Source: Clostridium sp. | GTDB lineage: Bacteria > Bacillota > Clostridia > Clostridiales > Clostridiaceae | Direction: 5' to 3' | DNA: 32,000 nucleotides | Assembly (NCBI RefSeq): GCF_050717515.1 | Contig: NZ_JBOITL010000032.1 | Location: forward strand, 1 to 32,000 | Shown: piece by piece, positions 4,621-21,331 of the stretch | How positions within the stretch are numbered: the stretch's first letter is position 1 | Layout: every line of letters starts with the position of its first letter | Translations under genes and position numbers: made by a program | The notes under the pieces: model-generated | What the model saw: only the letters and a program-made list of their open reading frames with translations | Database searches by the model: none | Told to the model about the DNA's origin: nothing

Positions 4621-4654
4621 TAATCTATCTCTCTCCTTTTATTCTAAATCCCTC

Positions 4655-5095: not shown

Positions 5096-5153
5096 TTGAG
5101 TAGTATAATCAGACCTTTACCGCAAAGTGTAAATTTACAACGTTAGTACGCCG

Positions 5154-5367
5154 AGCAAAGGTCAACAGGTAAACGGTTTTTAATAGAAATATCAGCTAAA
5201 CCATTTTGAAAAATTGATAAATTTTAAATTGTAATCTTAAGAAATCTTAAGGTTTAATTACAATTTTCTTAAACTTATTTTTGTAATATAAGAGAGTAAG
5301 GAATATGCATTTTACTTTATTGAAAAATTTTCAAATAAAAAAAATGTGTTATTTACTTAGATTTAAG
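5154..5367 (+). repeat. Left direct repeat (214 nt) carrying promoter copy 2
   Basis: Aligns by eye at about 90% identity with 8456-8665, from AGCAAAGGTCAACAGG to ATTTAAG. Confidence 0.85.
5235..5289 (+). promoter_or_regulatory. Promoter copy 2 of the VanR-type regulon (upstream of vanH)
   Basis: TCTTAAG at 5235-5241 and 5245-5251, TCTTAAA at 5267-5273, TAATAT at 5284-5289. The spacing is identical to copies 1 and 3. Confidence 0.6.
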
Positions 5368-5450
5368 AAAATATTTTACTTCTACGTTAATTTGAAATAG
5401 TATGCGATAAAAGCAAAGAAAAATGTAATATGAAAGGAGAAATCTAAATC

Positions 5451-6410
5451 ATGGCAAAAATAAAAATTACAATTTATGGATGCACACAGGACGAGGCCGT
5501 TTTGTTCCGAGAAATAGCGCCTCGCTTTGGAATTATGCCAACTATCACAGATGCAGTGGTATCTGAAGCTAATATTAAACTGGCATTTGGAAATCGATGC
5601 ATCAGCGTTGGTCATAAAACTCAAATCACAAATTCCATTCTTCTTGCGCTCAGCCAAGCTGGTGTAAGATATATCTCTACAAGAAGTATTGGATATAACC
5701 ATATTAATGTAAAATACGCAAAGAGCGTTGGCATTTCCATTGAAAATGTCACTTATTCGCCTGATAGCGTGGCTGATTACACATTAATGCTCATGCTGAT
5801 GGCGGTACGAAATACAAAATCCATTATTAGCCGTGCAGATATTTATGATTTCAGATTGAATGATGTACGCGGGAAAGAATTACGTGATATGACCATTGGC
5901 GTAATTGGAACAGGACGCATTGGCGCTGCGGTTATTGAAAGGCTGAGGGGCTTTGGCTGCAATATATTAGCCTATGACCATCGGTCCATATCCTCTGATG
6001 ATTACGTTCCTCTTAATGAATTGTTACAGCAGAGCGATATTATAACGCTCCATACACCACTTAAAGAGGATACAAACCATCTTATTAATCGTCAACGTAT
6101 CGAGCAGATGAAGCACGGCGCGTTTATTATCAATACTGGACGCGGTTCACTTATCGATACCGAGGCTCTTATTTCAGCGTTGGAAAGTGGTAAACTAGGC
6201 GGTGCGGCATTGGATGTACTCGAAGGAGAGGAAGGAATATTCTACTTTGACTACAGAAAAAAAACCATTGAAAACAAACTGCTGTTGCGGTTACATAAAC
6301 TAACGAATGTGATTATTACTCCGCACACCGCCTATTACACAGAACACGCCTTGAAAGATACCGTTGAAAATACTATTATCAATTGCTTGAAATTTGAAAG
6401 GAGAGAGTAG
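5451..6410 (+). CDS. vanH: VanH, D-specific 2-hydroxyacid (pyruvate to D-lactate) dehydrogenase
   Basis: Full-length by-eye match to Tn1546 VanH (YGC.QDEA, CISVGHK, YISTRSIG.NHI, YSPDSVADYT, GTG.IG.AVIERLRGFGC, GKLGGAALDVLEGEE, NVIITPHTAYYTE, FERR). GC is clearly above that of the flanks. Confidence 0.92.
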   Translation: MAKIKITIYGCTQDEAVLFREIAPRFGIMPTITDAVVSEANIKLAFGNRCISVGHKTQITNSILLALSQAGVRYISTRSIGYNHINVKYAKSVGISIENVTYSPDSVADYTLMLMLMAVRNTKSIISRADIYDFRLNDVRGKELRDMTIGVIGTGRIGAAVIERLRGFGCNILAYDHRSISSDDYVPLNELLQQSDIITLHTPLKEDTNHLINRQRIEQMKHGAFIINTGRGSLIDTEALISALESGKLGGAALDVLEGEEGIFYFDYRKKTIENKLLLRLHKLTNVIITPHTAYYTEHALKDTVENTIINCLKFERRE

Positions 6411-6411
6411 C

Positions 6412-7452
6412 ATGGATAGGTTAAAAATCGCAATTATATTTGGGGGTTGTTCCGAGGAACATCCTATCTCCGTTAAATCAGCACAAGAGGTCGCAAAAAA
6501 CCTTGATATGGAAAAGTATGAACCGTTCTATATCGGGATTACGAAAAATGGCGTTTGGAAGCTTTGTCACTGCCCTGACGCAAATTGGGAAAATGGAAGT
6601 TGCTGTCCGGCTATACTGTCACCGGACAGAAGCGTACACGGATTGCTTGTTCTGGAGCAGGGACAATACAAAACAATTCGTTTGGATATGGTGTTTCCCG
6701 TCCTGCATGGCAAACTTGGCGAGGATGGTGCGATGCAAGGTTTGTTGGAGCTTTCCGGCATCCCCTATGTAGGCTGCGATGTCCAAAGTTCTGCTCTGTG
6801 TATGGACAAATCCCTTGCTTTTATTGTCGCTAGAAACGCGGAAGTTGCTACGCCAAATTTCTGGACTGTCATGGCCAACGAGAATATTGATGCCGACCAG
6901 CTTACTTATCCCGTTTTTGTAAAGCCGGCCCGTTCAGGTTCATCTTTCGGCATCACTAAGGTATGTCGAAAAGAAGAATTGCTGAGTGCGATGGAAACCG
7001 CAAGACAGTATGACTCGAAGGTGTTGATTGAAGAGGCTATCGTCGGCAGCGAGGTAGGATGTGCGATATTAGGGAACGATATGGATTTGATTGTAGGCGA
7101 GGTAGATCAAATTTGTCTATCTCATGGTTTTTTCAAAATCCATCAGGAGAATAAGCCTGAAAACGGTTCTGAAAACTCAACAGTAATAGTTCCTGCTGAC
7201 ATTTCGTCAGAGGCGCGCTTGCTTGTTCAGGAGACAGCAAAAACCGTATATCGCGCTTTGGGATGCAGGGGACTTTCGCGGGTAGATATGTTCCTTACGG
7301 AAGATGGAAAAGTAATACTTAACGAGGTTAATACTTTGCCTGGTATGACCTCATACAGCCGTTATCCGAGAATGATGGTGGCCGCAGGTTTGCCGTTTGC
7401 CGAAGTGATCGACCGGATTATATCGTTGACAGTGAAAGGAGAAAGGCGATGA
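6412..7452 (+). CDS. VanA/B/D-class D-alanine--(R)-lactate ligase (subtype not assignable by eye)
   Basis: Start ATG 6412 lies 7 nt after AGGAGAG. IIFGGCSEEH, YIGITKNGVWK, HGK.GEDGA.QGL.ELSGIPYVGCD.QSSA.CMDKSL, YPVFVKPARSGSSFG, EVGCAILGN, GEVDQI..SHGFFKIHQE..PE.GSEN and LNEVNTLPG.TSYSRYPRMM are present. The His in KIHQE is the depsipeptide-ligase signature. Several segments (GSEVGCAILGN, HGFFKIHQE) look closest to VanD. Confidence 0.9.
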   Translation: MDRLKIAIIFGGCSEEHPISVKSAQEVAKNLDMEKYEPFYIGITKNGVWKLCHCPDANWENGSCCPAILSPDRSVHGLLVLEQGQYKTIRLDMVFPVLHGKLGEDGAMQGLLELSGIPYVGCDVQSSALCMDKSLAFIVARNAEVATPNFWTVMANENIDADQLTYPVFVKPARSGSSFGITKVCRKEELLSAMETARQYDSKVLIEEAIVGSEVGCAILGNDMDLIVGEVDQICLSHGFFKIHQENKPENGSENSTVIVPADISSEARLLVQETAKTVYRALGCRGLSRVDMFLTEDGKVILNEVNTLPGMTSYSRYPRMMVAAGLPFAEVIDRIISLTVKGERR

Positions 7453-8057
7453 AAAATGATTTTGTCTTTGTAGACGAATTTGTACACGGAATACGTTGGG
7501 ATGCTAAATACGCCACATGGGATAATTTTACCGGCAAACTGGTGGACGGATATGTAGCAAATCGAATTGTCGGTACGAGAGCTTTGTGCGCAGCCCTGGA
7601 AAAAGCACGAGAAAACGCCGCTTCCTTTGGCTTTGGCTTGCTTCTTTGGGATGGTTATCGCCCTCAATGCGCCGTAGATTGTTTTCTGCGCTGGTCAAAA
7701 CAGCCGGAAAATGGCCAGACGAAACTAAAACACTATCCGAATATTGACAAAACCGAGATAGTTGAAAAAGGATATGTGGCCGCTAAGTCGGGGCACAGTC
7801 GCGGCAGCGCAATTGACTTAACCCTCTATCATTTAGCTACCGGTACACTTGTTCCAATGGGCGGCGACTTTGATTTGATGGATTCAGTCTCACATCATGG
7901 AGCAAAAAGAATCACGCAAGTCGAAGCGAGAAACCGTCAATACCTTTGTTCTATCATGGAGGCCTGCGGTTTTGTTTCATATGATTGCGAGTGGTGGCAC
8001 TACACACTGAAACACGAACCTTATCCAAACACTTATTTTGATTTTCCCATCACATAG
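7449..8057 (+). CDS. vanX: VanX D-Ala-D-Ala dipeptidase
   Basis: ATGA overlap with the ligase stop. VHG.RWDAKYATWDNFTGK.VDGY, LLLWDGYRP, SGHSRGSAIDLTLY, EWWHY and PYPN.YFDFP match Tn1546 VanX throughout. Confidence 0.92.
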   Translation: MKNDFVFVDEFVHGIRWDAKYATWDNFTGKLVDGYVANRIVGTRALCAALEKARENAASFGFGLLLWDGYRPQCAVDCFLRWSKQPENGQTKLKHYPNIDKTEIVEKGYVAAKSGHSRGSAIDLTLYHLATGTLVPMGGDFDLMDSVSHHGAKRITQVEARNRQYLCSIMEACGFVSYDCEWWHYTLKHEPYPNTYFDFPIT

Positions 8058-8249
8058 TTGAGGCGGTCAAAAAAATTGCCAAAAGCATTGAAAGTACTTA
8101 TAGCAGCTAATATTTAGGCAACATAATCTATAAAGGTACTGTATTATTTCAATAACTAAATTTTAGATACATAAATATTTAATATTAACAGTTTCATGTA
8201 AACGATGGTTTGCAAGGAGCTGTTATATTTTATTTTAGAAAAGAGGTAA

Positions 8250-8402
8250 GTTCATAAAAAATTTAAACATAGCCTAACTGAATTCTCGGATATAATAGAT
8301 AAAGCAACCCCTGAGGGATTAAAGAATGCTAAGGCTAAAGGTATTAAGTTGGGTAGACCTAACAGGATTTTACAGAAGACTTTAAAAAAATATGAATTAT
8401 AA
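8250..8402 (+). pseudogene. C-terminal remnant of a serine recombinase (resolvase/invertase family)
   Basis: Reads ...SLTEFSDIIDKATPEGLKNAKAKGIKLGRPNRILQKTLKKYEL*. This resembles the AEFER...ERT.EGL..AKA.G...GRP linker region. There is no catalytic N-terminal domain, and an in-frame stop lies at 8247-8249. Confidence 0.5.
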
Positions 8403-8455
8403 AAGAGGGGTGTAACCTTCTTTTTTTATGGAATGAATATATATGCTTGAAAGCA

Positions 8456-8665
8456 AGCAAAGGTCAACAGGCAAAACAGTTTCTAATAGAAACATCAGCT
8501 AAACCATTTTGAAAAATGGATAAAATTTAAATTGTAATCTTAAGAAATCTTAAGGTTTAATTACAATTTTCTTAAACTCATTTTTGTATTATAAGAAAGT
8601 AAGGAATATGCATTTTACTTTGTTGAAGAATTTTCAAAAAAAATGTGTTATCACTTGAATTTAAG
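8456..8665 (+). repeat. Right direct repeat (210 nt) carrying promoter copy 3
   Basis: About 90% identical to 5154-5367. It continues directly into the vanY-2 ribosome-binding site. Confidence 0.85.
8538..8592 (+). promoter_or_regulatory. Promoter copy 3 of the VanR-type regulon (upstream of vanY-2/vanR/vanS)
   Basis: TCTTAAG at 8538-8544 and 8548-8554, TCTTAAA at 8570-8576, TATTAT at 8587-8592. Confidence 0.6.
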
Positions 8666-8695
8666 CTATTAAAGGTAAATAAGGAGGAGTTTAAG

Positions 8696-9424
8696 GTGAA
8701 AAAGAAAACTGGAGTGATTTTGATTTTAGGAATTGTATGCTTAATGTACATAAACAGCAAATATGGTAGTATAAAAGTTATAGGGGATGTAATTGAAAGG
8801 AAAACTTATATTGAATCTATTAAAGATATGTCTAATGAGAATAGCAATGTAGATGATGGAGAGTTAATATTAGTGAATAGAAAAACTACTTTGGATAAGG
8901 ATTATGTTCCACATAATTTAAAAGTTGCAAAGGTTAATATTTATCCTACCGTTTCAGATGAAGAAATGCAAATGGAAGGAAATGCAGCGGATGCACTTAA
9001 AAAACTATTTGATCAAGGTAAGGAGGAAGGAATTATACTTTATGCATTATCTGGCTATAGATCTTATGCAACTCAAAAGGACTTATATGAAAATAGTATT
9101 AAAACAAATGGAAAAGGGTATACATATAAGTACGTGGCAATAGCAGGTAAAAGTGAACATCAATCAGGACTTGCAATGGATATAACTAATGCTAAAAAGA
9201 GTACAGGTTTTGAAAACACTAAAGAAGGTAAATGGCTTCAAAAGAATGCTTATAAATTTGGATTTATAATAAGATATGGAAAAGGAAAAGAAGATATTAC
9301 AGGTTATAATTATGAACCTTGGCATGCAAGGTATGTAGGTGCTGAGAATTCAGAGAAAATTTACTCAAAGGATATTACTTTGGAGGAGTTTTTAAAATCT
9401 GTAACAATCAAAGTATATAATTAA
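8696..9424 (+). CDS. vanY: VanY-like D-alanyl-D-alanine carboxypeptidase (M15B), copy 2
   Basis: The ORF track gives 8645-9424. The likely start is GTG 8696 after AGGAGG (8682-8687). It has the same TM anchor and the SGYRSY, SEHQSGLAMD and EPWHARYVG motifs. Its C-terminus is 8 aa longer than copy 1. Confidence 0.85.
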   Translation: MKKKTGVILILGIVCLMYINSKYGSIKVIGDVIERKTYIESIKDMSNENSNVDDGELILVNRKTTLDKDYVPHNLKVAKVNIYPTVSDEEMQMEGNAADALKKLFDQGKEEGIILYALSGYRSYATQKDLYENSIKTNGKGYTYKYVAIAGKSEHQSGLAMDITNAKKSTGFENTKEGKWLQKNAYKFGFIIRYGKGKEDITGYNYEPWHARYVGAENSEKIYSKDITLEEFLKSVTIKVYN

Positions 9425-9444
9425 AGAATGTAAAATAAAACCTG

Positions 9445-9506
9445 TTTGTTATATATTATCTGTGTTTTTAGTAAATGAACTTGGAATAAGTCCTCCATAT
9501 TTTGTG
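9445..9506 (+). pseudogene. Internal remnant of a paralogue of the 4Fe-4S membrane protein gene (compare 15756-15819)
   Basis: 62 nt align with 64 nt of the intact gene with roughly 8 differences, including AGTAAATGAA.TTGGAATAAGTCCTCCATATTTT. A 1-nt loss in the T-run breaks the frame, and there is no flanking coding sequence. Confidence 0.6.
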
Positions 9507-9640
9507 TTTCTATATTTATGGTCGACAAATATATTTTTAAGCGATATACTTATTAAAAATGTATAAGTTTCAACATTTAGTACACTTAAAAGTTATATAT
9601 TGCACAAAATGCTATCTGAACAAATAAATGGAGTGATTAT

Positions 9641-10351
9641 ATGGGTAAAAATATATTAGTTGTAGATGATGATAAAGAAATAGTTAATTTAATTGAAATA
9701 TATTTAACTAATGAAGGACATAATATTTACAAAGCATATGATGGTGAACAAGCTTTGCAGGTTATAGATAATTATAATATAAATCTTATAATACTAGATA
9801 TAATGATGCCTAAAATTGATGGTATAGAAGTGTGTAACAAAGTTCGCGAGAAACTTAATATACCTATAATTATGTTAAGTGCTAAAAATCAAGATTCAGA
9901 TAAAATAAAAGGGTTATTGTCAGGAGCTGATGATTATATGGTAAAACCCTTTAATCCTTTAGAACTTATGGTTAGAGTTAAGTCTATATTTAGAAGGATT
10001 TACGAATTCGATAAAAATAGTGATGAATTAAAAGATAGAGATACTATAGTTATAGGACCACTTAAAATTAAAAAATCCACTCATCAGGTAGAAGTATATA
10101 ATAAGATTATTGCTTTAACTTCTACAGAATTTGAAATATTACACGTCCTAGCTAATAATCCAGGGAGAGTTTTTAGTGCAGAAGAAATATTTCAAAGAGT
10201 TTGGAAGGAAAAATATTATCAATCTAATAATACAGTTATGACTCACATGAGTAAATTAAGAGATAAGCTTGATGAAGTTTTAGATGGTGAGAAACTTATT
10301 CATACTATATGGGGAGTAGGGTATAAAATTGAAAAGAAAACTTATATATAA
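9641..10351 (+). CDS. vanR: VanR-like OmpR-family response regulator (the only intact copy)
   Basis: Receiver domain (VVDDD, phospho-acceptor context LIILDIMMP, SAKN, DDYMVKPF) plus a winged helix ending NNTVMTHMSKLRDKL...TIWGVGYKIEKK. Compare Tn1546 VanR, which ends NNTITVHIRHLREKM...TVWGVGYKIEK. Confidence 0.88.
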   Translation: MGKNILVVDDDKEIVNLIEIYLTNEGHNIYKAYDGEQALQVIDNYNINLIILDIMMPKIDGIEVCNKVREKLNIPIIMLSAKNQDSDKIKGLLSGADDYMVKPFNPLELMVRVKSIFRRIYEFDKNSDELKDRDTIVIGPLKIKKSTHQVEVYNKIIALTSTEFEILHVLANNPGRVFSAEEIFQRVWKEKYYQSNNTVMTHMSKLRDKLDEVLDGEKLIHTIWGVGYKIEKKTYI

Positions 10352-11432
10352 ATTAGAGTTAAAAGTAGTTTTTAATATATTTCTTGTTTTTCTATTATCA
10401 GCATTAACAATGGCAGTATTTTATATTATGTGGAAGTTTTTTTTGGTAATATGTACAATCTATTCACAACGATTTTTAGATATAATTTATAGGCTAAGGC
10501 AATATGTCGATTTTATAAATATAACAAGTGCACTATGGATAATAATTTTTATAAGTTATTCCCATTTATTGCTTTACAAGAAAATTAAGTACTTTGTAGA
10601 AGTTGATGAACATATGAAAGCTATAGCCGCGGGTAGGATAGATAAAAAAATACCAGAACAATCGAAAGCAGAGCTTGGGAAAATGGCTAAAAATATGAAT
10701 GAAATAATAGAAAAATTAAATAAATCAATAGAAGAAGAGCGGAGAGCAGAACAAACAAAATATGAATTAATAACAAATGTATCTCATGATTTACGCACTC
10801 CATTAACCTCAATATTAGGGTATCTTGAACTAATAGATAAGGATAGATATGAAGATGAAGTTAGGCTTAGATACTATGTAAGTATTGCCTATGAAAAATC
10901 AAAGCGATTGAATACTTTAATTGATGACTTATTTCAATATACTATAATGAGAAATAGTACTTTAAAATTAAAAAAAGAATCAATAAACGTAATTGAACTT
11001 TTAAATCAAGTGGTATTGGAATTTAATCCACAGTTTAGAAAAAAAAATATAGAATGTAGGACATATTTTTCGGAGGATAAACTCTTAATAATGGCTGATG
11101 CAGCTAAATTAGCTAGAGCATTTGAAAATCTAATTTCTAACGGTATGAACTATGGAAGTGGGACTGAGTATATTGACATATGTACTAGGAAAGAAAATAA
11201 TAGTGCGGTTATAGAGGTAATTAATTATGGTGAGCCAATACCAAGTATAGATGTACCTTTTATTTTTGAAAGGTTCTATAGAGTTGAAAAGTCACGTTCG
11301 GAATTTGCTGGAGGATCAGGACTCGGTCTTGCTATAACTAAAAGTATAATCGAGCTTCATGAGGGTGAAATTTTTGTTGAAAGCAATTATGAGAGAACTG
11401 TTTTTATAATTAAATTGCCCTTGGGTAGTTAA
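10329..11432 (+). CDS. vanS: VanS-like sensor histidine kinase, copy 2
   Basis: TTG start overlaps the vanR 3' end. Same architecture and motifs as 1625-2728. The HAMP/DHp region is nearly identical at nucleotide level, while the N-terminal sensor part is much more diverged. Confidence 0.88.
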   Translation: MKRKLIYKLELKVVFNIFLVFLLSALTMAVFYIMWKFFLVICTIYSQRFLDIIYRLRQYVDFINITSALWIIIFISYSHLLLYKKIKYFVEVDEHMKAIAAGRIDKKIPEQSKAELGKMAKNMNEIIEKLNKSIEEERRAEQTKYELITNVSHDLRTPLTSILGYLELIDKDRYEDEVRLRYYVSIAYEKSKRLNTLIDDLFQYTIMRNSTLKLKKESINVIELLNQVVLEFNPQFRKKNIECRTYFSEDKLLIMADAAKLARAFENLISNGMNYGSGTEYIDICTRKENNSAVIEVINYGEPIPSIDVPFIFERFYRVEKSRSEFAGGSGLGLAITKSIIELHEGEIFVESNYERTVFIIKLPLGS

Positions 11433-11515: not shown

Positions 11516-11633
11516 ATTTGAAATTATGAACCTTACATACTTGTCATATTCCTGTAAGCTTTACAGATAGTAAGTTATACATTATCATTATAGACTATAT
11601 GTATGTTTATAATTAGTTTCGAAGGAGTGGTAA

Positions 11634-12485
11634 ATAATCGATATAATATTTTTAGTAAAAGCAATTATAATAGCAATAGTAGAAGGGCTAACGGAGTTTA
11701 TCCCAGTATCTTCTACAGGACACATGATATTAGTTGGATGGGCAATTGGGTTTCAAGGGAAATTTGCAGAGATGTTTGAAGTTGTAATTCAACTTGGAGC
11801 AATAATGGCAGTGGTTGTTTTATATTGGAAGAAGATTAAAGAAAGTTTAATAGAATTTTTTAAGTTTATATTTACTAAAGGAAAAGAGGGAAAGAAAGGA
11901 TTTAAATTTGGGGTAAATGTTATTATAGCATCTATTCCCATGGGAATTGTAGGAGTATTATTATACGATAAAATCAAATCAAAATTTGTACCAGAAGCTG
12001 TCATAGTAGGATTTATAGTTGGTGGATTATTGTTATTAATAATTGAAAAGAGATTTGGGGGTAGGGATCATAAAGTAGAAAGTATAGATAACATAACACC
12101 TGTACAAGCATTTAAAATTGGGTTATTACAACTTCTTTCTGTATGGCCAGGAATGTCAAGAAGTGCGTCTACAATCATGGGTGGGTGGATTGCTGGATTA
12201 ACAACACCAATAGCAGCAGAGTTTTCATTTTTCATAGCCATTCCCGCTATGATAGGGGCAACAGGTAAGGATTTATTTGAATTTGATTATTCTGTAATGA
12301 CGAAAACATTATGGATTGCATTAATAGTTGGATTTATTGTAGCCTTCATAGTATCTATAATAGTTATGAAAAAATTTGTTGATTACTTGAAAAAGAAGCC
12401 GATGAAAGTTTTTGCAGTATATAGAATAGTAATAGGAAGTCTACTTGGGATATTAGTATTAACTAAGATTATTATTTTAACATAG
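11634..12485 (+). CDS. uppP: Undecaprenyl-diphosphate phosphatase UppP/BacA; the start codon is apparently non-canonical
   Basis: The ORF track starts at Met 11724. The conserved N-terminal motif VEGLTEFIPVSSTGH is encoded in frame upstream (11679-11723). The frame is open only back to TAA 11631-11633 and holds no ATG/GTG/TTG in between. RBS GGAGTGG at 11624-11630 precedes ATA 11634 and ATC 11637. Confidence 0.8.
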   Translation: MIDIIFLVKAIIIAIVEGLTEFIPVSSTGHMILVGWAIGFQGKFAEMFEVVIQLGAIMAVVVLYWKKIKESLIEFFKFIFTKGKEGKKGFKFGVNVIIASIPMGIVGVLLYDKIKSKFVPEAVIVGFIVGGLLLLIIEKRFGGRDHKVESIDNITPVQAFKIGLLQLLSVWPGMSRSASTIMGGWIAGLTTPIAAEFSFFIAIPAMIGATGKDLFEFDYSVMTKTLWIALIVGFIVAFIVSIIVMKKFVDYLKKKPMKVFAVYRIVIGSLLGILVLTKIIILT

Positions 12486-13744: not shown

Positions 13745-13823
13745 AATTTATCTCCTTTGTTAAAAAAAATTTGATTGTATTTAATTATAATCAAATAAGT
13801 CAAAAGTTACAAGGTTATTTAAG

Positions 13824-13851
13824 GTGCCACCCACGTGGCAAGTGGCAAGTT
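13824..13851. repeat. 28-bp GC-rich element, copy a (GTGCCACCCACGTGGCAAGTGGCAAGTT)
   Basis: Exact reverse complement of 16215-16242. It contains the palindrome CCACGTGG and can fold as GCCAC-TTG-CCAC/GTGG-GTGGC. Confidence 0.9.
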
Positions 13852-13868
13852 ATGAAAAGAAATATTTG

Positions 13869-13929
13869 TAAGGTTTATTTAAGGTTAATGTTATCAAGAG
13901 GTAAGGTTAACCTTATATAATGTATTTAT
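13869..13929 (+). promoter_or_regulatory. TAAGGTT-box promoter, copy a (upstream of the TlpA-like operon)
   Basis: 61 nt identical to 16246-16306 except for one base. TAAGGTT occurs twice at 11-bp phasing, followed by the perfect 14-bp palindrome TAAGGTTAACCTTA (13902-13915) and TATAAT at 13916-13921. Confidence 0.65.
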
Positions 13930-13974: not shown

Positions 13975-15069
13975 ATGAAAAGAAAATTTCTAACAATTTT
14001 AATAGTAGGAGTGATTTGTATATCCATGGTGGCTTGTAATAAGTCTACGGAGGAAAAATCAAAACAAGCTCAAAATAAAACGGAACAAACAGAAACTAAA
14101 AAAGAAGATGCAGGAAAGAAATTTGAAAATTTAGGTATTGAATATAAATTACCAGATAAGTGGAAAGCAAAAGAGAAAAATATAGATTTACTTGGAATTG
14201 ATGGAGGAGAAAATATAATAGGACAGCTTATGTTTAGCTTTACATCTACTGAAACTATGAACAAGATTGAGAAATCAAATGAGGATTCAAAAAAAATCCC
14301 AGAAACAGACAAAGTAAAAATGGAGAAATTTCAAACAGAATTTATGAATTTATTAAAAGAGAGTAAAGAATTATGTACTATTGTAACTATAGATAAAAGT
14401 AAAACCGCAGGCAAAGCGCAAAAAGAATTGTTCGCCAAGTTTAAAAATAAGGATTTATTAGGTAAAGAAGGTAACTTTGAAATTTACTTATTACATAATG
14501 ATGTACCTGAGGAAAGTGGATTATCGGATAAATCTAAAAAAGATTTTAAAGAAGTATATGGAGAAATTAAAAATTTTAAAAGTTTGATTAAAACATCTAA
14601 ACCAGTATCAGAAAAAGAAAAATTAAACAAATATAAGAAGTTTGAGTTTAAAACTAAAACTTTAGATGGAAAAGAAATAGATAGTAGTATTTTTAAAGAT
14701 AGTAAGCTTACTATGATAAATATATGGGCTACATATTGTGGACCATGTATAGAAGAAATGCCAGATCTTCAAAAGCTTTACGAAGAAGTTAAGGGGGAGA
14801 AGATTAATGTGATTGGTCTTGTTTCAGACACACCTGACGCGGATAATGAAGAATTAGCTAAACAAATTTTACAAAAAAAAGGTGCCAAGTTTACTAATAT
14901 TATTCCAGATGAAAGCATTAAAAATAATATATTGAAAGATGTTTCAGGGGTTCCTACTACATTATTTGTTGACAGTAAAGGTAATATTGTTGGAGACTTT
15001 ATAGTTGGTTCACATAGTAAAGAAGACTATAAGAAAGAAATAGAAGCTAGGCTTAAAAGTATAAAATAG
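13975..15069 (+). CDS. Lipoprotein with C-terminal TlpA/ResA-like thioredoxin domain and a long N-terminal domain of unknown function
   Basis: Start ATG 13975 lies 6 nt after AAAGGAGAA. Signal peptide with lipobox (ISMVAC). About 230 K/E-rich residues with no family I recognise, then INIWATYCGPCIEEMPDL (CGPC active site) and GVPTTLFVD (cis-Pro loop). Confidence 0.75.
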   Translation: MKRKFLTILIVGVICISMVACNKSTEEKSKQAQNKTEQTETKKEDAGKKFENLGIEYKLPDKWKAKEKNIDLLGIDGGENIIGQLMFSFTSTETMNKIEKSNEDSKKIPETDKVKMEKFQTEFMNLLKESKELCTIVTIDKSKTAGKAQKELFAKFKNKDLLGKEGNFEIYLLHNDVPEESGLSDKSKKDFKEVYGEIKNFKSLIKTSKPVSEKEKLNKYKKFEFKTKTLDGKEIDSSIFKDSKLTMINIWATYCGPCIEEMPDLQKLYEEVKGEKINVIGLVSDTPDADNEELAKQILQKKGAKFTNIIPDESIKNNILKDVSGVPTTLFVDSKGNIVGDFIVGSHSKEDYKKEIEARLKSIK

Positions 15070-15190
15070 AAGTGTAAATGAATTATAGTTCAGAAGTAAA
15101 CTACCTCACCTTATATTAGGTGGGGTATATATCATAATTGGGGTTATTAATTTTAAGAGTAAAAATTTTATTATAAGCTAATTATAGGAA

Positions 15191-15376
15191 ATGAAAAAAA
15201 GATGGGATGTGAATTTTATGAATACAAATAGGCTTACTAAAAGCCAAGGATTAATGAAATATGGGATTCTAACAATGAGTATTTTATTTATTTCTACTGG
15301 AATATACAGAAATGAAGTAAGAATTGTATTCAGAAAAGCAATAAATATATGTTTGGAGTGTATAGGCATTGGATAA
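15191..15376 (+). CDS. Small membrane protein with C-terminal CXXC (CD1871A-family-like); start uncertain
   Basis: One TM helix (YGILTMSILFISTGIY) and a C-terminal INICLECIGIG. Alternative starts are M10 and M22. Its stop overlaps the TTG start of the next gene by 8 nt. Confidence 0.55.
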   Translation: MKKRWDVNFMNTNRLTKSQGLMKYGILTMSILFISTGIYRNEVRIVFRKAINICLECIGIG

Positions 15377-16199
15377 AAGAAGAATAACGCAAATTGTTGC
15401 AGCTATAACCACAAATGCAAATGTAAATGGGTTTTTAAAAGGTAATATATATAAAGGCGCCACAAAGAAAGTGTGTGTTCCAGGCTTAAACTGTTACTCT
15501 TGTCCTGGAGCAGTAGGTTCCTGCCCTATAGGTTCACTGCAGGCGGTTATAGGAACTGTAAAATATAATGTTTCATTATATATACTTGGAATCATGTCTT
15601 TATTTGGTGTTATATTTGGTAGATTTGTATGTGGATGGTTATGTCCTTTTGGTCTTATTCAAGATTTATTATATAAAATACCTTCTAAAAAGATAAAAGT
15701 AAATATAAAAGTCAATAATATACTTAAGTATTTAAAATATATTATATTGGCATTATTTGTTATAATATTACCCATGTTTTTAGTAAATGAATTTGGAATA
15801 AGTCCTCCATATTTTTGTGAATACATATGTCCGGCGGGCACACTAGAAGGTGGCATACCATTAGTTTTAATGAATGTATCACTAAGGAGAGCTCTAGGAT
15901 ACTTATTTGTATGGAAGATGTTTGTACTAATTAGCATTATTATTGCTTCAATATTTATATATAGACCATTTTGTAGGTATATATGTCCCTTAGGAGCATT
16001 TTACTCCTTATTTAATAAAGTGAGTTTTTACAAATATGAAGTAGATAAAAACAAGTGTACAAACTGTAGTGCTTGTGTTAGAAAATGTAAGATGAATATA
16101 GAAATATATAAAAATCCTAACAGTGCTGAGTGTATTAGGTGTGGTGAGTGTGTAACAGCTTGCCCTACAAAGGCTATAAAAAAAGGATTTAGGCGTTAA
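15369..16199 (+). CDS. NapH/NosR-like polytopic 4Fe-4S-binding membrane protein
   Basis: Membrane-proximal Cys motifs CYSCPGAVGSCP, CGWLCPFG, CEYICPAG and CRYICPLG. A C-terminal 2x[4Fe-4S] ferredoxin domain (CTNCSACVRKC ... CIRCGECVTACP). About 5 TM helices. Confidence 0.8.
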   Translation: MDKRRITQIVAAITTNANVNGFLKGNIYKGATKKVCVPGLNCYSCPGAVGSCPIGSLQAVIGTVKYNVSLYILGIMSLFGVIFGRFVCGWLCPFGLIQDLLYKIPSKKIKVNIKVNNILKYLKYIILALFVIILPMFLVNEFGISPPYFCEYICPAGTLEGGIPLVLMNVSLRRALGYLFVWKMFVLISIIIASIFIYRPFCRYICPLGAFYSLFNKVSFYKYEVDKNKCTNCSACVRKCKMNIEIYKNPNSAECIRCGECVTACPTKAIKKGFRR

Positions 16200-16214: not shown

Positions 16215-16242
16215 AACTTGCCACTTGCCACGTGGGTGGCAC
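16215..16242. repeat. 28-bp GC-rich element, copy b (inverted relative to copy a); possibly doubles as a terminator
   Basis: AACTTGCCACTTGCCACGTGGGTGGCAC starts 16 nt after the 4Fe-4S gene stop and is followed by TTTT. Confidence 0.9.
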
Positions 16243-16245
16243 TTT

Positions 16246-16306
16246 TAAGGTTTGTTTAAGGTTAATGTTATCAAGAGGTAAGGTTAACCTTATATAATGT
16301 ATTTAT
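16246..16306 (+). promoter_or_regulatory. TAAGGTT-box promoter, copy b (upstream of the ABC-2 transporter operon)
   Basis: Same 61-nt block as 13869-13929. TATAAT at 16293-16298. Confidence 0.65.
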
Positions 16307-16344: not shown

Positions 16345-17364
16345 ATGATATATTGGGAACTTAAAAAAATATTCAAATCAAAAACTGGAATAATTGTAGC
16401 AATAATATTTATTTTACTTTGTGTATCAATGGCTTTTATAAAACCAGAGATGGAAACACAAAAGTCACATAGAAATGAGCAATATCAGTTAATTAATGAT
16501 ACAAGACCAGCCACGGTAATTGCACAAGAAAAATTAGATGCAAAAATAGGAACAATAAAGGAAATGTCAAATAGTAAGGACAAAGATGATTTTAGTAAAG
16601 GTATAAAAGAAATATCAACTAAAAAACTGAAAGCTATGGAAGACACTAAGTATAGTGATGTTAGCTTCTGGAAGGTATTCGATTATAGAGCAACCAATAC
16701 ACTTATGGCATTCTTTATGGTGGTAATTCTAATCATAGTTTGTTGCAATATATACACGGATGAAATTGTGTCTACAGTAGAAAATTTGATTCTTACATCA
16801 AAAAATAAAAATAGAGCTTTATATTCAAAATTAGGACTTGGAATATTAATACCAACAGTTTTATATGGGTTTTATCTAGTAATCCAATTTATAATAACAG
16901 CAGTCCAATATGGCCTGCCAATAAATGGAGGGTTACAAGCCATAAGAATAATAGACAACCCTATTTTAGTAAGAGATGCATATACTATAACTCAATTTAT
17001 AATATTAAAGATAGGCATAATGATATTGATATTAGCTACACTAGGTGTAATTGCATGTTTATCTTCATTTTTAACAACAAGCTCAATTGCAGCTACAAGT
17101 GGATTCTTGATGTTTATTATTATTCCAAAATTGTTAACAATGGTAAAAGTAATTCCAGGTAATGTTCAAATGCTATTAAATAGTATTAATTTTGTAAATT
17201 TACTATTCTATTTTAAACAGTTTGCAGGCGTATATTATGGGAATGTAAAATTCTTTGGGATGAACTTTGACTTAATTAATCTTTGCCTTGGAATATTGGG
17301 AATGACTTTAGTGGCAGGAATTACAATGAGCATAGTATCATTTAAAAAAGTATTAGTAAGATAA
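16345..17364 (+). CDS. ABC-2-type transporter permease with an extracytoplasmic loop of about 75 aa
   Basis: RBS AGGAGG. One N-terminal TM helix, a hydrophilic loop (residues about 35-110), then about 5 TM helices. It lies next to an ABC ATPase gene. Confidence 0.65.
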   Translation: MIYWELKKIFKSKTGIIVAIIFILLCVSMAFIKPEMETQKSHRNEQYQLINDTRPATVIAQEKLDAKIGTIKEMSNSKDKDDFSKGIKEISTKKLKAMEDTKYSDVSFWKVFDYRATNTLMAFFMVVILIIVCCNIYTDEIVSTVENLILTSKNKNRALYSKLGLGILIPTVLYGFYLVIQFIITAVQYGLPINGGLQAIRIIDNPILVRDAYTITQFIILKIGIMILILATLGVIACLSSFLTTSSIAATSGFLMFIIIPKLLTMVKVIPGNVQMLLNSINFVNLLFYFKQFAGVYYGNVKFFGMNFDLINLCLGILGMTLVAGITMSIVSFKKVLVR

Positions 17365-17399
17365 TTAATAGATTTTAAAATTAGAGGAGGAATATAATT

Positions 17400-18287
17400 A
17401 TGAATAAGCTTGAGATAAAAAATTTAACAAAAAGCTATGGAAAAAAGAATGCAAACAATAATATAACACTTACTTTAGAAAATGGTGTATACGGACTACT
17501 AGGACCAAACGGAGCGGGTAAAACTACATTAATGAAACAAATAGTAACTTTAACAAAGCCTACTAGTGGAAAAATTATTTATAATGGAAAAAGTATTTAT
17601 GAAAAAGAAGATGAGTATAGAAATATTATTGGATATTTACCACAAGAATTTGGTGCATATAAGAATTTTACAGCAAAACAATTTTTGCAATATGTGGCTG
17701 CATTAAAAGGAATAGACAAAAAAAGTGCTTCCCAAAAAATTGATGAATTACTAAACCTTGTTGGATTATATGAGGTTAAAAATAAGGCAGTTGGTAAATT
17801 CTCCGGTGGTATGAAAAGAAGAGTTGGAATTGCACAAGTATTATTAAATGATCCTAAAATAGTTGTACTAGATGAACCAACAGCGGGCTTAGATCCCCAA
17901 GAAAGAGCAAGGTTTAGAAATCTTATCGCTGAAATATCAAAGGATAAAATAATAATACTTTCAACTCATATTATTTCAGATATAGAAGCAGTAGCAAGAG
18001 AAACTATAATGATTAAAAATGGCAGCGTTATAATAAAAGGAAATCATAAAGATATATTAAATGGCATGAAGGGAAAAGTATATAAGATTACAACAAATAA
18101 AGAAAATGAAGTTATGGATATACAAAGAGATTATAAGGTAGTTAACCTTCAAAGGGGTGCGGATATTACAGAGCTTAGAGTAGTAAGTGATAAAATGCCT
18201 CTATATGCATCAGCGCAGAGCATAGAACCAAGATTCGAAGATGTATATATGTTTTACTTTGATTTAGAAAATACTAAGGAGGTGTAA
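17400..18287 (+). CDS. ABC transporter ATP-binding protein (ABC-2/BcrA-like subfamily with C-terminal extension)
   Basis: Walker A GPNGAGKTT, Q-loop, signature FSGGMKRRVGIA, Walker B VVLDEPTAGLD and H-loop STHI. Confidence 0.9.
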   Translation: MNKLEIKNLTKSYGKKNANNNITLTLENGVYGLLGPNGAGKTTLMKQIVTLTKPTSGKIIYNGKSIYEKEDEYRNIIGYLPQEFGAYKNFTAKQFLQYVAALKGIDKKSASQKIDELLNLVGLYEVKNKAVGKFSGGMKRRVGIAQVLLNDPKIVVLDEPTAGLDPQERARFRNLIAEISKDKIIILSTHIISDIEAVARETIMIKNGSVIIKGNHKDILNGMKGKVYKITTNKENEVMDIQRDYKVVNLQRGADITELRVVSDKMPLYASAQSIEPRFEDVYMFYFDLENTKEV

Positions 18288-18290
18288 CTT

Positions 18291-19055
18291 ATGGGAATTC
18301 TTATAAAATCAGAAATAAGAAAAATGTTATTAAAACCTAGCATAATAATAACTTGGATTGTTTTACTTTTATTTTGTAAAATTTTAATTAGGCCAGGTAC
18401 AGGTGCAGAGGTTTGGGCAGATGTATTTAGTAAAACTTATGGAATCGTACCACTTATAGGATTAATAACCTTTATGATAATTTCAGCTACATATACACTT
18501 GAATATAGCTCTAATATGAATGAACTTATCAATACGACCCAAAATGGAAAGAAAAAAGTTGTAATGGCGAAATGGATTGGTGCAGGCATATCAACGTCAA
18601 TAGTTAATGTATCAATAGTACTTATAATATATATAGATGGATTAATAAAATCTAATTTTAAAGGGTTAGACTTACCATTAAAAGATCTTTGGTATTTTGG
18701 AAATAGTGGTTCAAACATAACTGTATTGCAAATGATGATTATACTTATAATAACTGTTATAATAGGTTCATTCTTTTTCTCAGAACTCGGACTATATCTA
18801 TCATCGATAAGTAAATCAGCTTCTATACCTTTTATTTTTGGGGGTCTACTTATGGGAGTGCCATATATGCTAGGCGGTTTTGTACCTTCAAAATATTTTG
18901 GGGTAACTCCACTTTGGGGAATGATGTCATCAGAATTAATAAGATACAAGGTTCCAATGGCATTAATTATAGTTCAAATAGTAATAGTTATTGCTGGCTT
19001 TGTATTTTTACCAAAGGTTACCCACAAAGCATTTATAAAAGAAGGAAAAAGATAA
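18291..19055 (+). CDS. Second ABC-2-type permease
   Basis: Six predicted TM segments. It starts 4 nt after the ATPase stop, behind GGAGG. Confidence 0.6.
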   Translation: MGILIKSEIRKMLLKPSIIITWIVLLLFCKILIRPGTGAEVWADVFSKTYGIVPLIGLITFMIISATYTLEYSSNMNELINTTQNGKKKVVMAKWIGAGISTSIVNVSIVLIIYIDGLIKSNFKGLDLPLKDLWYFGNSGSNITVLQMMIILIITVIIGSFFFSELGLYLSSISKSASIPFIFGGLLMGVPYMLGGFVPSKYFGVTPLWGMMSSELIRYKVPMALIIVQIVIVIAGFVFLPKVTHKAFIKEGKR

Positions 19056-19139: not shown

Positions 19140-19193
19140 AAGTATTTAAGACAAGATCTTTATGTGATGATTTAATTTTAAGGGGTGATAATT

Positions 19194-19913
19194 ATGGAGA
19201 ATTCAATTAATAAAAGCAAAATACTAATAGTTGATGATGAAGAGGACATATTAAAACTTTTATCTACTGTACTTAAAAAAGAGGGTTTTGAAAATATATA
19301 TACTGCAATAGCGGCAAAAGAAGCAATAGATTTAGTATCGCGGTTAGACCCAGATATTATTCTCTTGGATATAATGATGCCAGGTAGAGATGGGTATGAA
19401 GTATGCAAAGAGATAAGAAAGACTTCTAGAACCCCAATTTTATTTATGTCGGCTAAGACGGAAGAGCTAGATAGGATTTTGGGTTTTGCTTTAGGGGCTG
19501 ATGATTATATTACAAAGCCTTTCAGTCCAAAAGAGGTTGCCTATAGAGTAAAGGCTCATTTAAGAAGAAATAATTATATTGATGAAGATAAAACCGAAAA
19601 AGACAAAATCATAGTTTTTGGACCTTTTGAATTAAATGAGGAAAAGATAGAGTTTAAAAAGAATGGTGAGCCAATACAGTTAAAAGCAAAAGAATTTAAG
19701 ATGTTAGCTTATATGTTGAAAAACCCAAACCAAATCCTCAGCAAGGAAAAAATCTGCAGTGGAGTTTGGGGAGAAGATTATATAGGCTTTGACAATACAA
19801 TTATGGTTCACATAAGAAGACTCCGAGAGAAAATAGAGGATAATCCTTCATTGCCCAAATATATAGTTAATATTAAAGGTCTAGGATACAAATTTGTTGT
19901 AAAGGATGAATAG
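19194..19913 (+). CDS. OmpR-family response regulator (second system)
   Basis: The preferred start is ATG 19194, after AAGGGG. Receiver motifs (VDDEE, LLDIMMP, SAKT, DDYITKPF) and a winged helix with FDNTIMVHIRRLREKI...IKGLGYKF. Confidence 0.88.
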   Translation: MENSINKSKILIVDDEEDILKLLSTVLKKEGFENIYTAIAAKEAIDLVSRLDPDIILLDIMMPGRDGYEVCKEIRKTSRTPILFMSAKTEELDRILGFALGADDYITKPFSPKEVAYRVKAHLRRNNYIDEDKTEKDKIIVFGPFELNEEKIEFKKNGEPIQLKAKEFKMLAYMLKNPNQILSKEKICSGVWGEDYIGFDNTIMVHIRRLREKIEDNPSLPKYIVNIKGLGYKFVVKDE

Positions 19914-19915
19914 AG

Positions 19916-21331
19916 ATGAAATGGAAATTAATAGCTAGATTCATGTGGACTGTGGTTTCTGTAGTTATAATTGTAATGATTATAAATATTATTGCAGTGT
20001 TTTCTTTTATTATTTATAATAATACGACAAAAAGCGCCTTAATAGAGAAAAAATTAGAAGATGTAGGGATAGAAAATTATACTAGAGATTTTAGTAAATA
20101 TATTATGATTAGTAAAGAAGCTGTGGATATAGACAAGGATGGTAAATCAAGTTTGGACAATAACAATATTTGGATACAAATATTAGATGAGCAAAGTAAA
20201 GAAGTATATAGTTATAGAAAACCAAAGGGCGCAAAAGAGAGCTATACTCCTTTTGAATTGATTAATCAATATAAATATGTGGATGTAAAAACAGGAGCTA
20301 CTACTTTTATAGGTGAAAAACAGATAAAAGGACGCAAATACAGCTATATAATAGGACTACCACTTGCCAAGGTGCAGAGGGAAGTAATTACTATTAACTA
20401 CGATAATTTTATAGGGATTATTGGTAAATTTATTTATAGCATCTTAATATTAGATGCGCTTATTGCATTGTTTTTTGCATACTTTTTCTCAAGAAGGCTT
20501 ACTAGACCTTTAAGTAATATAATAAATGGGGTTCTAGTATTATCTGATGGAAATTATAATTTAGAATTATCCGAAAAGGGTATATACACTGTGGTCTATC
20601 GAAACCTAAACAACCTTTCATCAACTCTTAAGAGCAATGAAATAGAAAGAAAAAAACTTGATAAGATGAGGGAAGAATGGATTTCAAATATGTCACATGA
20701 TATTAAGACACCTCTGGTATCTATAAAAGGATATGCGGAACTCTTAAGCAGCGATGACTATGATTTATCAAAAGAAGAGGTAAAACAGTATTCAAAAATA
20801 ATAGACAGTAAGGCCAACTATATAAAAGAGCTTGTAGATGATTTGAATTTAACAACAAGATTAAAAAATAAAGTATTGAAGTTAAACAAGAAAAAAGTAA
20901 ATATGGTTAGCTTGGTACGAAATGCTGTAATTGACATACTAAACGACCCGAGTAACGCTGAGGTAGATATTGATTTCATTTGTGAAAGTGAAGATATAGA
21001 AGCTTTTGTGGATGCTAGTCTTATAATGAGGACTATGAAAAATTTAATATATAATGCAATAGTTCATAATGAAGAGGGGGTAAATATAAAAGTATCCGTT
21101 GAAAAGAAGGATAACTTGAAAATTGTTATAAGTGATAACGGAAAAGGAATAAGACCGGAAGAGCTAAACCATATATTCGAAAGATATTATAGGGGTACAA
21201 ATACCGGGAAGGGACATGAAGGTTCAGGGCTTGGAATGGCTATTGCAAATGATATAGTAAAAGCACATGATGGCGAAATTAAGATACTAAGTGAGCTTGG
21301 ACGCGGTACTGAAATAGAAATCTATTTATAA
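19916..21331 (+). CDS. Sensor histidine kinase with an extracytoplasmic domain of about 130 aa (second system)
   Basis: Two TM helices flank residues about 35-165, followed by a HAMP domain. H-box NMSHDIKTPLVSIKGY, N-box NLIYNAIVHN, and G-boxes DNGKGI and GSGLGMAI. Confidence 0.88.
   Translation: MKWKLIARFMWTVVSVVIIVMIINIIAVFSFIIYNNTTKSALIEKKLEDVGIENYTRDFSKYIMISKEAVDIDKDGKSSLDNNNIWIQILDEQSKEVYSYRKPKGAKESYTPFELINQYKYVDVKTGATTFIGEKQIKGRKYSYIIGLPLAKVQREVITINYDNFIGIIGKFIYSILILDALIALFFAYFFSRRLTRPLSNIINGVLVLSDGNYNLELSEKGIYTVVYRNLNNLSSTLKSNEIERKKLDKMREEWISNMSHDIKTPLVSIKGYAELLSSDDYDLSKEEVKQYSKIIDSKANYIKELVDDLNLTTRLKNKVLKLNKKKVNMVSLVRNAVIDILNDPSNAEVDIDFICESEDIEAFVDASLIMRTMKNLIYNAIVHNEEGVNIKVSVEKKDNLKIVISDNGKGIRPEELNHIFERYYRGTNTGKGHEGSGLGMAIANDIVKAHDGEIKILSELGRGTEIEIYL

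Follow-up and report, generated by a model that had tools for sequence, protein, structure and literature searches.

A conserved triad of thioredoxin-fold lipoprotein, small CXXC membrane protein and NapH-like polyferredoxin in Clostridium sp.: a candidate route of reductant across the membrane

The 32,000-nucleotide stretch of Clostridium sp. DNA analysed here (the window) carries three co-oriented genes that encode a lipoprotein with a C-terminal thioredoxin domain, a very small membrane protein ending in a CXXC motif, and a NapH-like polyferredoxin (Table 1). Judged by comparison of sequences, this triad is probably a conserved and functionally coherent NapH-like transmembrane module with the thioredoxin as its extracytoplasmic mediator, standing in for CcdA or DsbD. 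The small protein and the polyferredoxin would form a membrane complex that carries electrons outward and keeps the CGPC site of the lipoprotein reduced, in the manner of CcdA and DsbD, and we put the probability of this reading at roughly 60%. A sequence-only reading of the window had placed the three genes at 13975-16199, where they were indeed found, and had suggested that the polyferredoxin replaces CcdA as the electron conduit with the small protein as a relay. That suggestion now draws strong comparative support from synteny, gene fusions (among them a relative, P0377, joined to an NAD(P)H module), the lack of CcdA and DsbD homologues, and predicted topology.

Conserved gene order and gene fusions

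The proteins of the window have their closest relatives in Clostridium sp. FP1. A one-genome-per-species scan for relatives of the polyferredoxin returned at least 598 stretches, the best 80 of which underlie all locus counts given here. These 80 loci span Clostridiaceae, Peptostreptococcaceae (including C. difficile), Lachnospiraceae, Oscillospiraceae, Selenomonadales and Treponema, and their genes were called by phmmer with the window proteins against all stop-to-stop open reading frames (ORFs). An exhaustive HMMER search for the polyferredoxin family among 1.84 billion cluster representatives yielded 574 protein clusters (50% identity) at E <= 1e-30, and fusions were counted in the best 150 of these 574 representatives.

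Gene order had been chosen beforehand as one point on which the proposal could fail, and the outcome was the opposite of a refutation. A small gene of the CD1871A type lies immediately upstream of the polyferredoxin gene, or overlaps it, in 78 of the 80 loci, and a thioredoxin-fold gene (counted if on the same strand and within 1.5 kb) adjoins it in 62, upstream in 54. A lipobox is present in 41 of these 62 thioredoxin-fold partners, and their active-site dipeptide varies (CSPC, CPPC, CGYC and others). Unbiased clustering within ±5 kb revealed no other recurrent neighbours save histidine kinases (24 loci) and generic ATP-binding cassette (ABC) ATPases.

Single chains in which the polyferredoxin is followed by a linker and a TlpA-like domain make up 41 of the 150 representatives, and the linker is usually one strongly hydrophobic segment. 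Pfam confirms the thioredoxin fusions in P0292, P0299, P0310 and P0332, with active sites WCGPC or WCGGC. Since one hydrophobic helix lies between them, the fused thioredoxin domain is predicted to sit on the opposite side of the membrane from the ferredoxin domain. A fusion of another kind is seen in P0377 (789 aa), which carries a GltD-like NAD(P)H/FAD/Fe-S module (Fer4_20 plus Pyr_redox_2) at the N-terminus of the polyferredoxin; its locus has a 44-aa CD1871A gene (...KAIRICLECIGIG) upstream and a TlpA-like lipoprotein gene (WCAPC) downstream. This fusion suggests a cytoplasmic reductant as the electron source. Next to the fused types, the upstream gene encodes a protein with five transmembrane (TM) helices that ends in ...KICSECIGLG or ...NICTECIGLG, and because these 5-TM genes end in the same motif as the small gene, the CXXC module would be a universal partner. 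No fusion of the small protein to the polyferredoxin occurs among the 150 representatives. Taken together, translational coupling, synteny and fusion are the classical signature of direct functional coupling, which they favour here.

Other architectures occur in the family. P0295, P0296, P0310 and P0332, among others, have N-terminal extensions of 140-200 aa with extra TM helices, and P0282, P0285 and P0289, among others, have C-terminal multi-TM extensions without a thioredoxin domain. The entry P0095 is an internal duplication and probably an assembly artefact.

That the window holds neither ccdA nor dsbD, as had been stated from the sequence, agrees with all searches made. Pfam and NCBIfam scans, which covered window ORFs of at least 90 aa, detected no member of the DsbD/CcdA family, and phmmer with E. 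coli DsbD (full length and membrane domain) found no homologue among ORFs of at least 60 aa in the window and the 80 loci. The sole match, marginal at E 0.009, was a thioredoxin-fold ORF that aligned with the thioredoxin-like domain of DsbD.

In C. difficile, the triad (locus L073, 7231-8858) consists of CD630_15070 (a 194-aa lipoprotein with WCGPC), an unannotated 49-aa ORF ending in ...MICLECIGIG, and CD630_15080, and it adjoins the MATE transporter CD630_15060. The name CD1871A refers to another copy, at CD1871 in the CTn5 region of strain 630, which is annotated differently in other strains. Expression of CD630_15070 changed at 5% O2 (Neumann-Schaal et al. 2018, cited in PMC8767335) and was unchanged at 1.5% O2 by the quantitative PCR of PMC8767335 itself, and CD1508 is among the Hfq-enriched mRNAs of C. 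difficile. Literature searches found no functional study of CD630_15070 or CD630_15080, no experimental study of the triad or its small family, and, in the library searched, no paper linking a NapH-like protein with a thioredoxin.

Predicted products and membrane topology

The polyferredoxin contains two Fer4_5 domains, scoring above the Pfam cut-off for PF12801 (79.4 bits against 22), and two Fer4 domains. It had been described as a polytopic protein with CX2CP and CX3CP motifs and a 2x[4Fe-4S] domain, and these motifs could all be located. A CX5CX2CPX5CP motif (C36, C42, C45, C52) occupies loop 1, and three CX3CP motifs follow (C88/92, C150/154, C202/206), one in loop 3 and two that are predicted to lie where TM2 and TM4 end on the inner side, together with two CX2CX2CX3C motifs; the C-terminal domain is predicted to be of the 2x[4Fe-4S] ferredoxin type. 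Of 81 homologues, 80-81 retain each of the 18 cysteines.

The protein falls well outside the models for characterised NapH, with 78.7 against a cut-off of 213.05 for NapH/MauN (TIGR02163) and 72 against 234 for quinol dehydrogenase NapH (NF007013), and no nap or mau genes were found in the window scans or among the recurrent neighbours of the 80 loci. It shares 24% identity with E. coli NapH, in an alignment that pairs CGWLCP and CRYICP with CSWVCP and CGHICP. Both proteins carry a CX3CP motif behind TM2 and another behind TM4, along with eight cysteines of the ferredoxin type, whereas C36, C42, C45 and C52 of loop 1 and the loop-3 motif C150/C154, opposite which E. coli NapH shows a 19-residue gap, are specific to the polyferredoxin family.

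Model helices of the polyferredoxin span residues 4-24, 70-91, 113-142 and 170-196, the first of them (H1) only weakly hydrophobic (mean Kyte-Doolittle 0.8). Across the family, loop 2 is rich in K/R, loop 3 is neutral and the segment after TM4 is basic, a charge pattern that points to the cytoplasm for loop 2 and the post-TM4 segment and to the outside for loop 3. The N-terminus is predicted to be cytoplasmic as well, because P0377 carries its NAD(P)H/FAD module there. With both the N-terminus and loop 2 in the cytoplasm, H1 and TM2 would each cross the membrane, and loop 1 is probably on the outer side. Loops 1 and 3 of NapH are reportedly periplasmic (Brondijk et al. 2004). The outer face would thereby gain a site rich in cysteines, as many as eight of them conserved, which probably lies beside the outward-facing thioredoxin.

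In the small protein, a basic N-terminus leads into a single TM helix and an amphipathic helix, and the C-terminal sequence is CLECIGIG, an ending that it shares with 42 of 78 relatives. Its ORF (15191-15376) is in keeping with the peptide of at most 61 aa with one TM helix that had been described earlier, and the protein, whose CXXC lies near its C-terminal end, scores 67.2 bits (cut-off 32, aa 25-61) with NCBIfam NF040920, 'CD1871A family CXXC motif-containing protein'; the family is thus already named in NCBIfam. The likely start is at 15218, as homologues are called as 52 aa. The stop codon (15374-15376) overlaps the TTG start of the polyferredoxin gene (15369) by 8 nt, the overlap noted before. 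In 76 loci the C-terminus reads K-A-x-x-I-C-[LM]-E-C-[IV]-G-[IVL]-G-stop. Its invariant residues are written with freely varying synonymous codons (Cys TGT 43 and TGC 33, Gly all four codons), which shows selection on the small protein itself and not on the DNA. On this evidence the small ORF represents a genuine gene.

The CXXC tail is predicted to lie outside, because it is found on the K/R-poor side of the 5-TM long forms (K+R per loop 3,3,9,0,12,2 and 2,1,11,1,7,1). The orientation of the short forms agrees with this prediction: the N-terminal flank is more basic than the C-terminal flank in 55 sequences and less basic in 7. A 367-aa entry named 'CD1871A family' (P0144, Clostridium sp. Marseille-Q7071) lacks a signal peptide and reads through from the lipoprotein gene across the intergenic region into the small gene. 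It probably stems from faulty annotation or sequencing and is no true fusion, and it was left out of the topology analysis.

The N-terminus of the lipoprotein (MKRKFLTILIVGVICISMVAC) is predicted to be a signal peptide with the lipobox ...ISMVAC, a lipoprotein signal that would place the protein outside the cytoplasm. Redoxin (E 6.5e-15) and AhpC-TSA (E 5e-14) cover aa 220-354 in Pfam, and the active site YCGPC occupies aa 254-258. The AlphaFold model (62 homologues) has a predicted local distance difference test score (pLDDT) of 85.9, and Foldseek matches its C-terminal domain with ResA, Etrx2, SdbA, StoA and TlpA (TM score ~0.8, E down to 7.5e-12), so that thioredoxin fold, CXXC and TlpA-type insertion are all present. 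In the model, aa ~45-218 form a well-predicted alpha/beta domain upstream of the thioredoxin domain. No family was matched by this N-terminal domain, with PsbP_2 below threshold as the only Pfam signal and Foldseek dominated by the thioredoxin domain; both the C-terminal CGPC thioredoxin fold and the N-terminal part without family had been recognised in the sequence-only reading. The scores against the TlpA, ResA, StoA and DsbE models all lie below the cut-offs (60.4/230, 60.2/170, 46.6/210 and 53/123, respectively), and by these comparisons the lipoprotein is a family-level relative of TlpA and ResA, and the orthologue of no characterised member. It is 92% identical to a Clostridium sp. FP1 protein annotated as 'TlpA family protein disulfide reductase'.

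Three other assignments for the lipoprotein were tried and rejected. A peroxiredoxin identity is ruled out by the CXXC in a TlpA fold and the lack of a Prx active site. Neither a ResA-like role in cytochrome c maturation nor a role in supplying methionine sulfoxide reductase is borne out by the recurrent neighbours in the 80 loci, which include no resB/resC or ccm in the first case and no msr in the second.

Proposed electron route and competing explanations

In the proposed route, electrons would be given by a cytoplasmic donor, either reduced ferredoxin or, in fused relatives, the NAD(P)H/FAD/Fe-S module, and would enter the two [4Fe-4S] clusters in the C-terminal domain of the polyferredoxin. 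From there they would reach the CX3CP pair predicted on the inner side, next to TM2 and TM4, and move on to an outer cysteine site to which loop 1 (C36, C42, C45, C52), loop 3 (C150/C154) and the small protein's CXXC would all contribute. Thiol-disulfide exchange would then transfer them to the CGPC of the lipoprotein, which in turn may reduce extracytoplasmic or envelope substrates. The anatomy of the genes, the conserved cysteines, the synteny, the fusions and the lack of a nearby CcdA or DsbD are observed, whereas we infer where loop 1 lies, whether the outer site works as a disulfide relay or a metal cluster, which way electrons flow and what is reduced. For the CX3CP motifs of NosR and RdhC, the choice between disulfide and metal binding is open in the literature, which leans to redox-active disulfides (PMC5928378), and either chemistry would fit the proposed route. 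An outward, reducing direction is favoured because of the CGPC motif, the low-potential ferredoxin-type clusters and the fusion with a donor module, and the CGPC and the ResA/Etrx2/TlpA fold of the lipoprotein fit a reductase.

Several points weigh against this reading. The passage of electrons across the bilayer from the inner CX3CP motifs to the outer cysteines lacks an explanation, and no means is evident by which an Fe-S cluster, if there is one at the outer site, would be exported. Loop 1 is K/R-rich (mean 4.3 K+R against 0.5 D+E), which together with the weakly hydrophobic H1 runs contrary to the positive-inside rule, and the polyferredoxin model is modest (pLDDT 66.9, below 50 in the cysteine loop). 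An adjacent thioredoxin gene is missing in 18 of the 80 loci, and the NAD(P)H-module fusion is known from the single example of P0377. The CcdA/DsbD negative covers the window and the 80 loci, and CcdA could be encoded elsewhere in the host genomes. Finally, the support is comparative, and the C. difficile homologues CD630_15070 and CD630_15080 appear in omics lists only.

The loci without a thioredoxin gene also speak for an alternative in which the polyferredoxin and the small protein form a terminal reductase of a small molecule or metal ion on the outer side, comparable to CcoG acting on Cu(II), and the TlpA-like protein either services this enzyme (cysteine reduction, assembly) or hands over metal. 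Eight conserved cysteines on the outer face are more than a simple relay needs, and a CcoG model matches the ferredoxin part of the polyferredoxin. TlpA-type proteins assist the assembly of metal centres, as is known from TlpA, ScoI and CoxB, which would provide a precedent for such a service. However, the recurrent neighbours of the triad in the 80 loci include neither a metal transporter nor a chaperone nor any other candidate substrate gene, and the thioredoxin would still need a reductant where no CcdA or DsbD is nearby. As the frequent fusion of thioredoxin and polyferredoxin better fits a donor-acceptor pair than a maintenance factor, a terminal enzyme seems an unlikely function, if the best of the alternatives.

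Slightly less probable again is a flow in the reverse direction, with the lipoprotein oxidising extracytoplasmic thiols and the polyferredoxin removing the electrons, as an analogue of DsbA/DsbB for anaerobes without quinones. Thioredoxin-fold lipoproteins can be oxidases, as in the case of SdbA, which is among the Foldseek matches, and the variable dipeptide of the partners (CSPC, CPPC, CGYC) would be compatible with this. The CGPC of the window protein is, however, the classical motif of reducing thioredoxins, and the transfer of electrons from thiols to low-potential [4Fe-4S] clusters would be uphill on general thermodynamic grounds. The NAD(P)H/FAD fusion likewise suggests a donor and not a sink, though such modules are reversible.

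Least probable of all is co-transcription without any exchange of electrons, in which the polyferredoxin serves in redox sensing or regulation (the role at first ascribed to NosR, with NosR-family proteins annotated as regulators by the model 'transcriptional regulator NosR'; PMC5928378) or takes part in an unrelated membrane process and the thioredoxin is reduced otherwise. Two-component systems are frequent neighbours (24 of 80 loci), which would fit such a role. Against it speak the translational coupling, a gene order shared across phyla, the occurrence of both functions in one polypeptide in 41 independent cluster representatives, and the lack of a DNA-binding domain.

The preferred reading, a NapH-like conduit that reduces an extracytoplasmic thioredoxin, can be set against known systems. 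Like NapH, MauN, NosR and RdhC (PceC), the polyferredoxin has a predicted four-helix core, RRxxQ at the start of helix 1 and CX3CP after TM2 and TM4, and it shares the C-terminal 2x[4Fe-4S] ferredoxin domain with NapH and NosR. It differs from them in the four additional cysteines of loop 1, the third CX3CP in loop 3, the obligatory small CXXC partner and the thioredoxin-fold partner, and it lacks an FMN-binding domain and a NapG/NapA, NosZ or reductive dehalogenase partner. NapH-like modules are used modularly to link cytoplasmic or membrane electron pools with extracytosolic partners (PMC8238504). The same survey describes FMN-linked NapH-like variants and lists thioredoxin-like proteins solely as clients of DsbD; the combination found in the triad is not among the systems that it catalogues. 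It also describes a secreted DUF4266 protein, proposed to cycle its redox state in DsbD/DUF3570 clusters, which resembles the small protein in being very small, in having a conserved C-terminal cysteine pair and in belonging to an extracytosolic redox cluster. DUF4266 is nevertheless a different family with a CXC motif, secreted and partnered with DsbD, whereas the CXXC protein of the triad is membrane-anchored and partnered with the polyferredoxin.

The CcdA-ResA/StoA/Etrx and DsbD-CcmG/DsbC/DsbG pathways resemble the triad in their membrane-tethered CXXC acceptor of TlpA/ResA fold on the outer face and in the presumed export of reductant. In the triad, by contrast, the carrier would be an Fe-S protein instead of a cysteine-only transporter, its one-electron centres would have to couple to a two-electron disulfide, and the donor is presumably ferredoxin, or NAD(P)H via Fe-S and FAD, instead of cytoplasmic thioredoxin. 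Fe-S clusters reduce a disulfide with low-potential, ferredoxin-type input in ferredoxin:thioredoxin reductase and HdrB, the nearest parallels in mechanism and no more than that: they work in solution or in the cytoplasm and cross no membrane, and no sequence relationship between them and the triad was detected.

Regulation, genomic context and implications

The triad is preceded by a 64-nt promoter region that recurs in front of a downstream ABC operon (Table 1). The window has three occurrences of the 19-nt TAAGGTT box within it, where chance would give 0.15. Each copy of the region also holds a perfect 14-nt palindrome, TAAGGTTAACCTTA (13902-13915 and 16279-16292), which comes after the direct-repeat box and before the -10 hexamer and could be the operator of a second, dimeric regulator. 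Both promoter copies are conserved in Clostridium sp. FP1 upstream of the orthologous genes, and the gene order there is the same as in the window (UppP, PAP2, cupin on the minus strand, triad, ABC, response regulator, kinase, YccF). The two-component system directly 3' of the ABC operon, found in this place in FP1 too, is the obvious candidate regulator of both TAAGGTT-box promoters. The van-type two-component system at 9641-11432 was rejected as regulator of the triad, as its promoters carry a different box, CTTAAG-N5-CTTAAG.

Table 1. Features of the window, with positions counted from its first nucleotide.
Feature	Position	Strand	Description or basis
VanY	495-1307		
VanS-like kinase	1625-2728		
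DUF218	3052-4101		
TetR-like gene	4655-5095	-	
VanH	5451-6410		above NCBIfam cut-off
D-Ala-D-Lac ligase	6394-7452		714 against VanI cut-off 700
VanX	7449-8057		
Second VanY	8645-9424		
VanR/VanS-like genes	9641-11432		
Triad promoter region	13866-13929	+	duplicated 64-nt region
Direct repeat TAAGGTTtatTTAAGGTTA (TAAGGTT-N4-TAAGGTT)	13869-13887	+	11-bp spacing, typical of OmpR-type response-regulator boxes
-10 hexamer TATAAT of triad promoter	13916-13921	+	
TlpA/ResA-fold lipoprotein, 364 aa	13975-15069	+	Pfam, structure model, Foldseek
Stem-loop ACCUCACCUU...AGGUGGGGU	15102-15125	+	10-bp stem without U-tract, between lipoprotein and small genes; RNA fold
Small membrane protein, 52 aa (max 61 aa from 15191)	15218-15376	+	NF040920, homologue starts
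NapH-like polyferredoxin, 276 aa	15369-16199	+	TTG start; Pfam Fer4_5/Fer4, NapH alignment
Terminator-like hairpin 3' of polyferredoxin gene	16215-16248	+	~-18 kcal/mol, then UUUU
ABC-operon promoter, second copy	16243-16306	+	64 nt, 97% identical to 13866-13929
ABC operon	16345-19055	+	permease 339 aa (16345-17364), ATPase 295 aa (17400-18287), permease 254 aa (18291-19055)
Two-component system	19185-21331	+	OmpR-family response regulator (19185-19913), histidine kinase (19916-21331)

The terminator-like hairpin separates the triad and ABC units. An inverted copy of it lies upstream of the triad promoter at 13818-13851 (34 nt, 94% complementary to 16215-16248), on an insertion of ~40 nt within 13818-13865 that Clostridium sp. 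FP1 lacks at this position. The stem of the hairpin between the lipoprotein and small genes is kept in FP1 (locus L081, ~11118-11145), with changes confined to the loop. This stem-loop may serve in RNA processing or stability or terminate transcription in part, and might allow separate expression levels for the lipoprotein and the membrane subunits. An Rfam scan of the window gave no match.

Co-regulation of the triad with an immunity-type ABC transporter had been taken earlier as a sign of inducible defence against a thiol-reactive or disulfide-dependent compound. The first part of this proposal stands, in that the duplicated promoter and its conservation in FP1 make co-regulation of the triad and the ABC operon plausible here, while the inducer finds no support and the link with the transporter is narrow: the same three ABC genes adjoin the triad in 1 of the 80 loci (Oceanirhabdus, L002) and in Clostridium sp. 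FP1. The ATPase (ABC_tran) is nearest to the DrrA, GldA and lantibiotic-protection subfamilies, all below cut-off (TIGR03740, 177 against 309.75), and the permeases have no Pfam or NCBIfam match even at E up to 10, which leaves them outside the lantibiotic-type immunity families and makes the 'immunity-type' label a guess. Because the triad and the ABC transporter have a promoter in common, an inducible role in envelope stress is nonetheless suggested in this genome, with the nearby undecaprenyl-phosphate recycling genes and van cluster pointing the same way.

The vancomycin-resistance-type cluster occupies 495-11432. GC content is 0.44-0.46 at 6001-8000 against ~0.28 elsewhere in the window, a shift that suggests horizontal acquisition of the van cluster. 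An element, aatCTTAAGAAATCTTAAGGtttaattacaattttCTTAA, is found upstream of the first vanY (~385-420), vanH (~5236-5275) and the second vanY (~8540-8580), and is probably a VanR-type box, which differs from the TAAGGTT box in front of the triad and the ABC operon. Immediately 3' of each vanY (1310-1368 and 9445-9503) is a short remnant of a second polyferredoxin gene; one remnant matches 16133-16191 with 85% identity over 59 nt, the other matches 15756-15815 with 92% identity over 60 nt. In loci L001 and L006, a response regulator and a kinase directly follow the polyferredoxin gene. Given these fragments and this order of polyferredoxin, regulator and kinase, a second copy of the triad beside the VanRS-like system was probably destroyed by an insertion, after which the segment of vanY, fragment and kinase was duplicated. 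Closer to the triad, the UppP/BacA ORF (11724-12485, 253 aa; region 11603-12485) begins at position 22-30 of the family models, and its FP1 orthologue is called with 282 aa or 253 aa, depending on the assembly. Translation may in truth begin further upstream, at a codon other than ATG, or a frameshift may affect the 5' end.

To our knowledge, DsbD and CcdA are the only known bacterial suppliers of reductant across the membrane to extracytoplasmic thioredoxin-like proteins. A broader proposal, to which we would give somewhat less than an even chance, is that the triad represents a third, Fe-S-based machinery independent of DsbD and CcdA that exports reductant to extracytoplasmic thioredoxins, is widespread in quinone-poor anaerobes (Clostridia, Lachnospiraceae, Oscillospiraceae, Treponema) and couples one-electron [4Fe-4S] chemistry to a two-electron disulfide on the outside. 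If this is true, its chemistry would resemble that of a membrane-spanning ferredoxin:thioredoxin reductase, and it would be the first chemistry assigned to the CX3CP motifs of the NapH/NosR/RdhC superfamily, the role of which would become directly testable through a simple, assayable acceptor, the thioredoxin. The natural fusions of donor to polyferredoxin and of polyferredoxin to thioredoxin would offer ready minimal systems for reconstitution, and CD630_15070 and CD630_15080 are genetically tractable in C. difficile. A conserved alternative of this breadth (at least 598 one-genome-per-species matches and 574 protein clusters) would explain how many strict anaerobes, such as gut Lachnospiraceae and Oscillospiraceae, C. 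difficile and oral treponemes, keep their surface thiols reduced.

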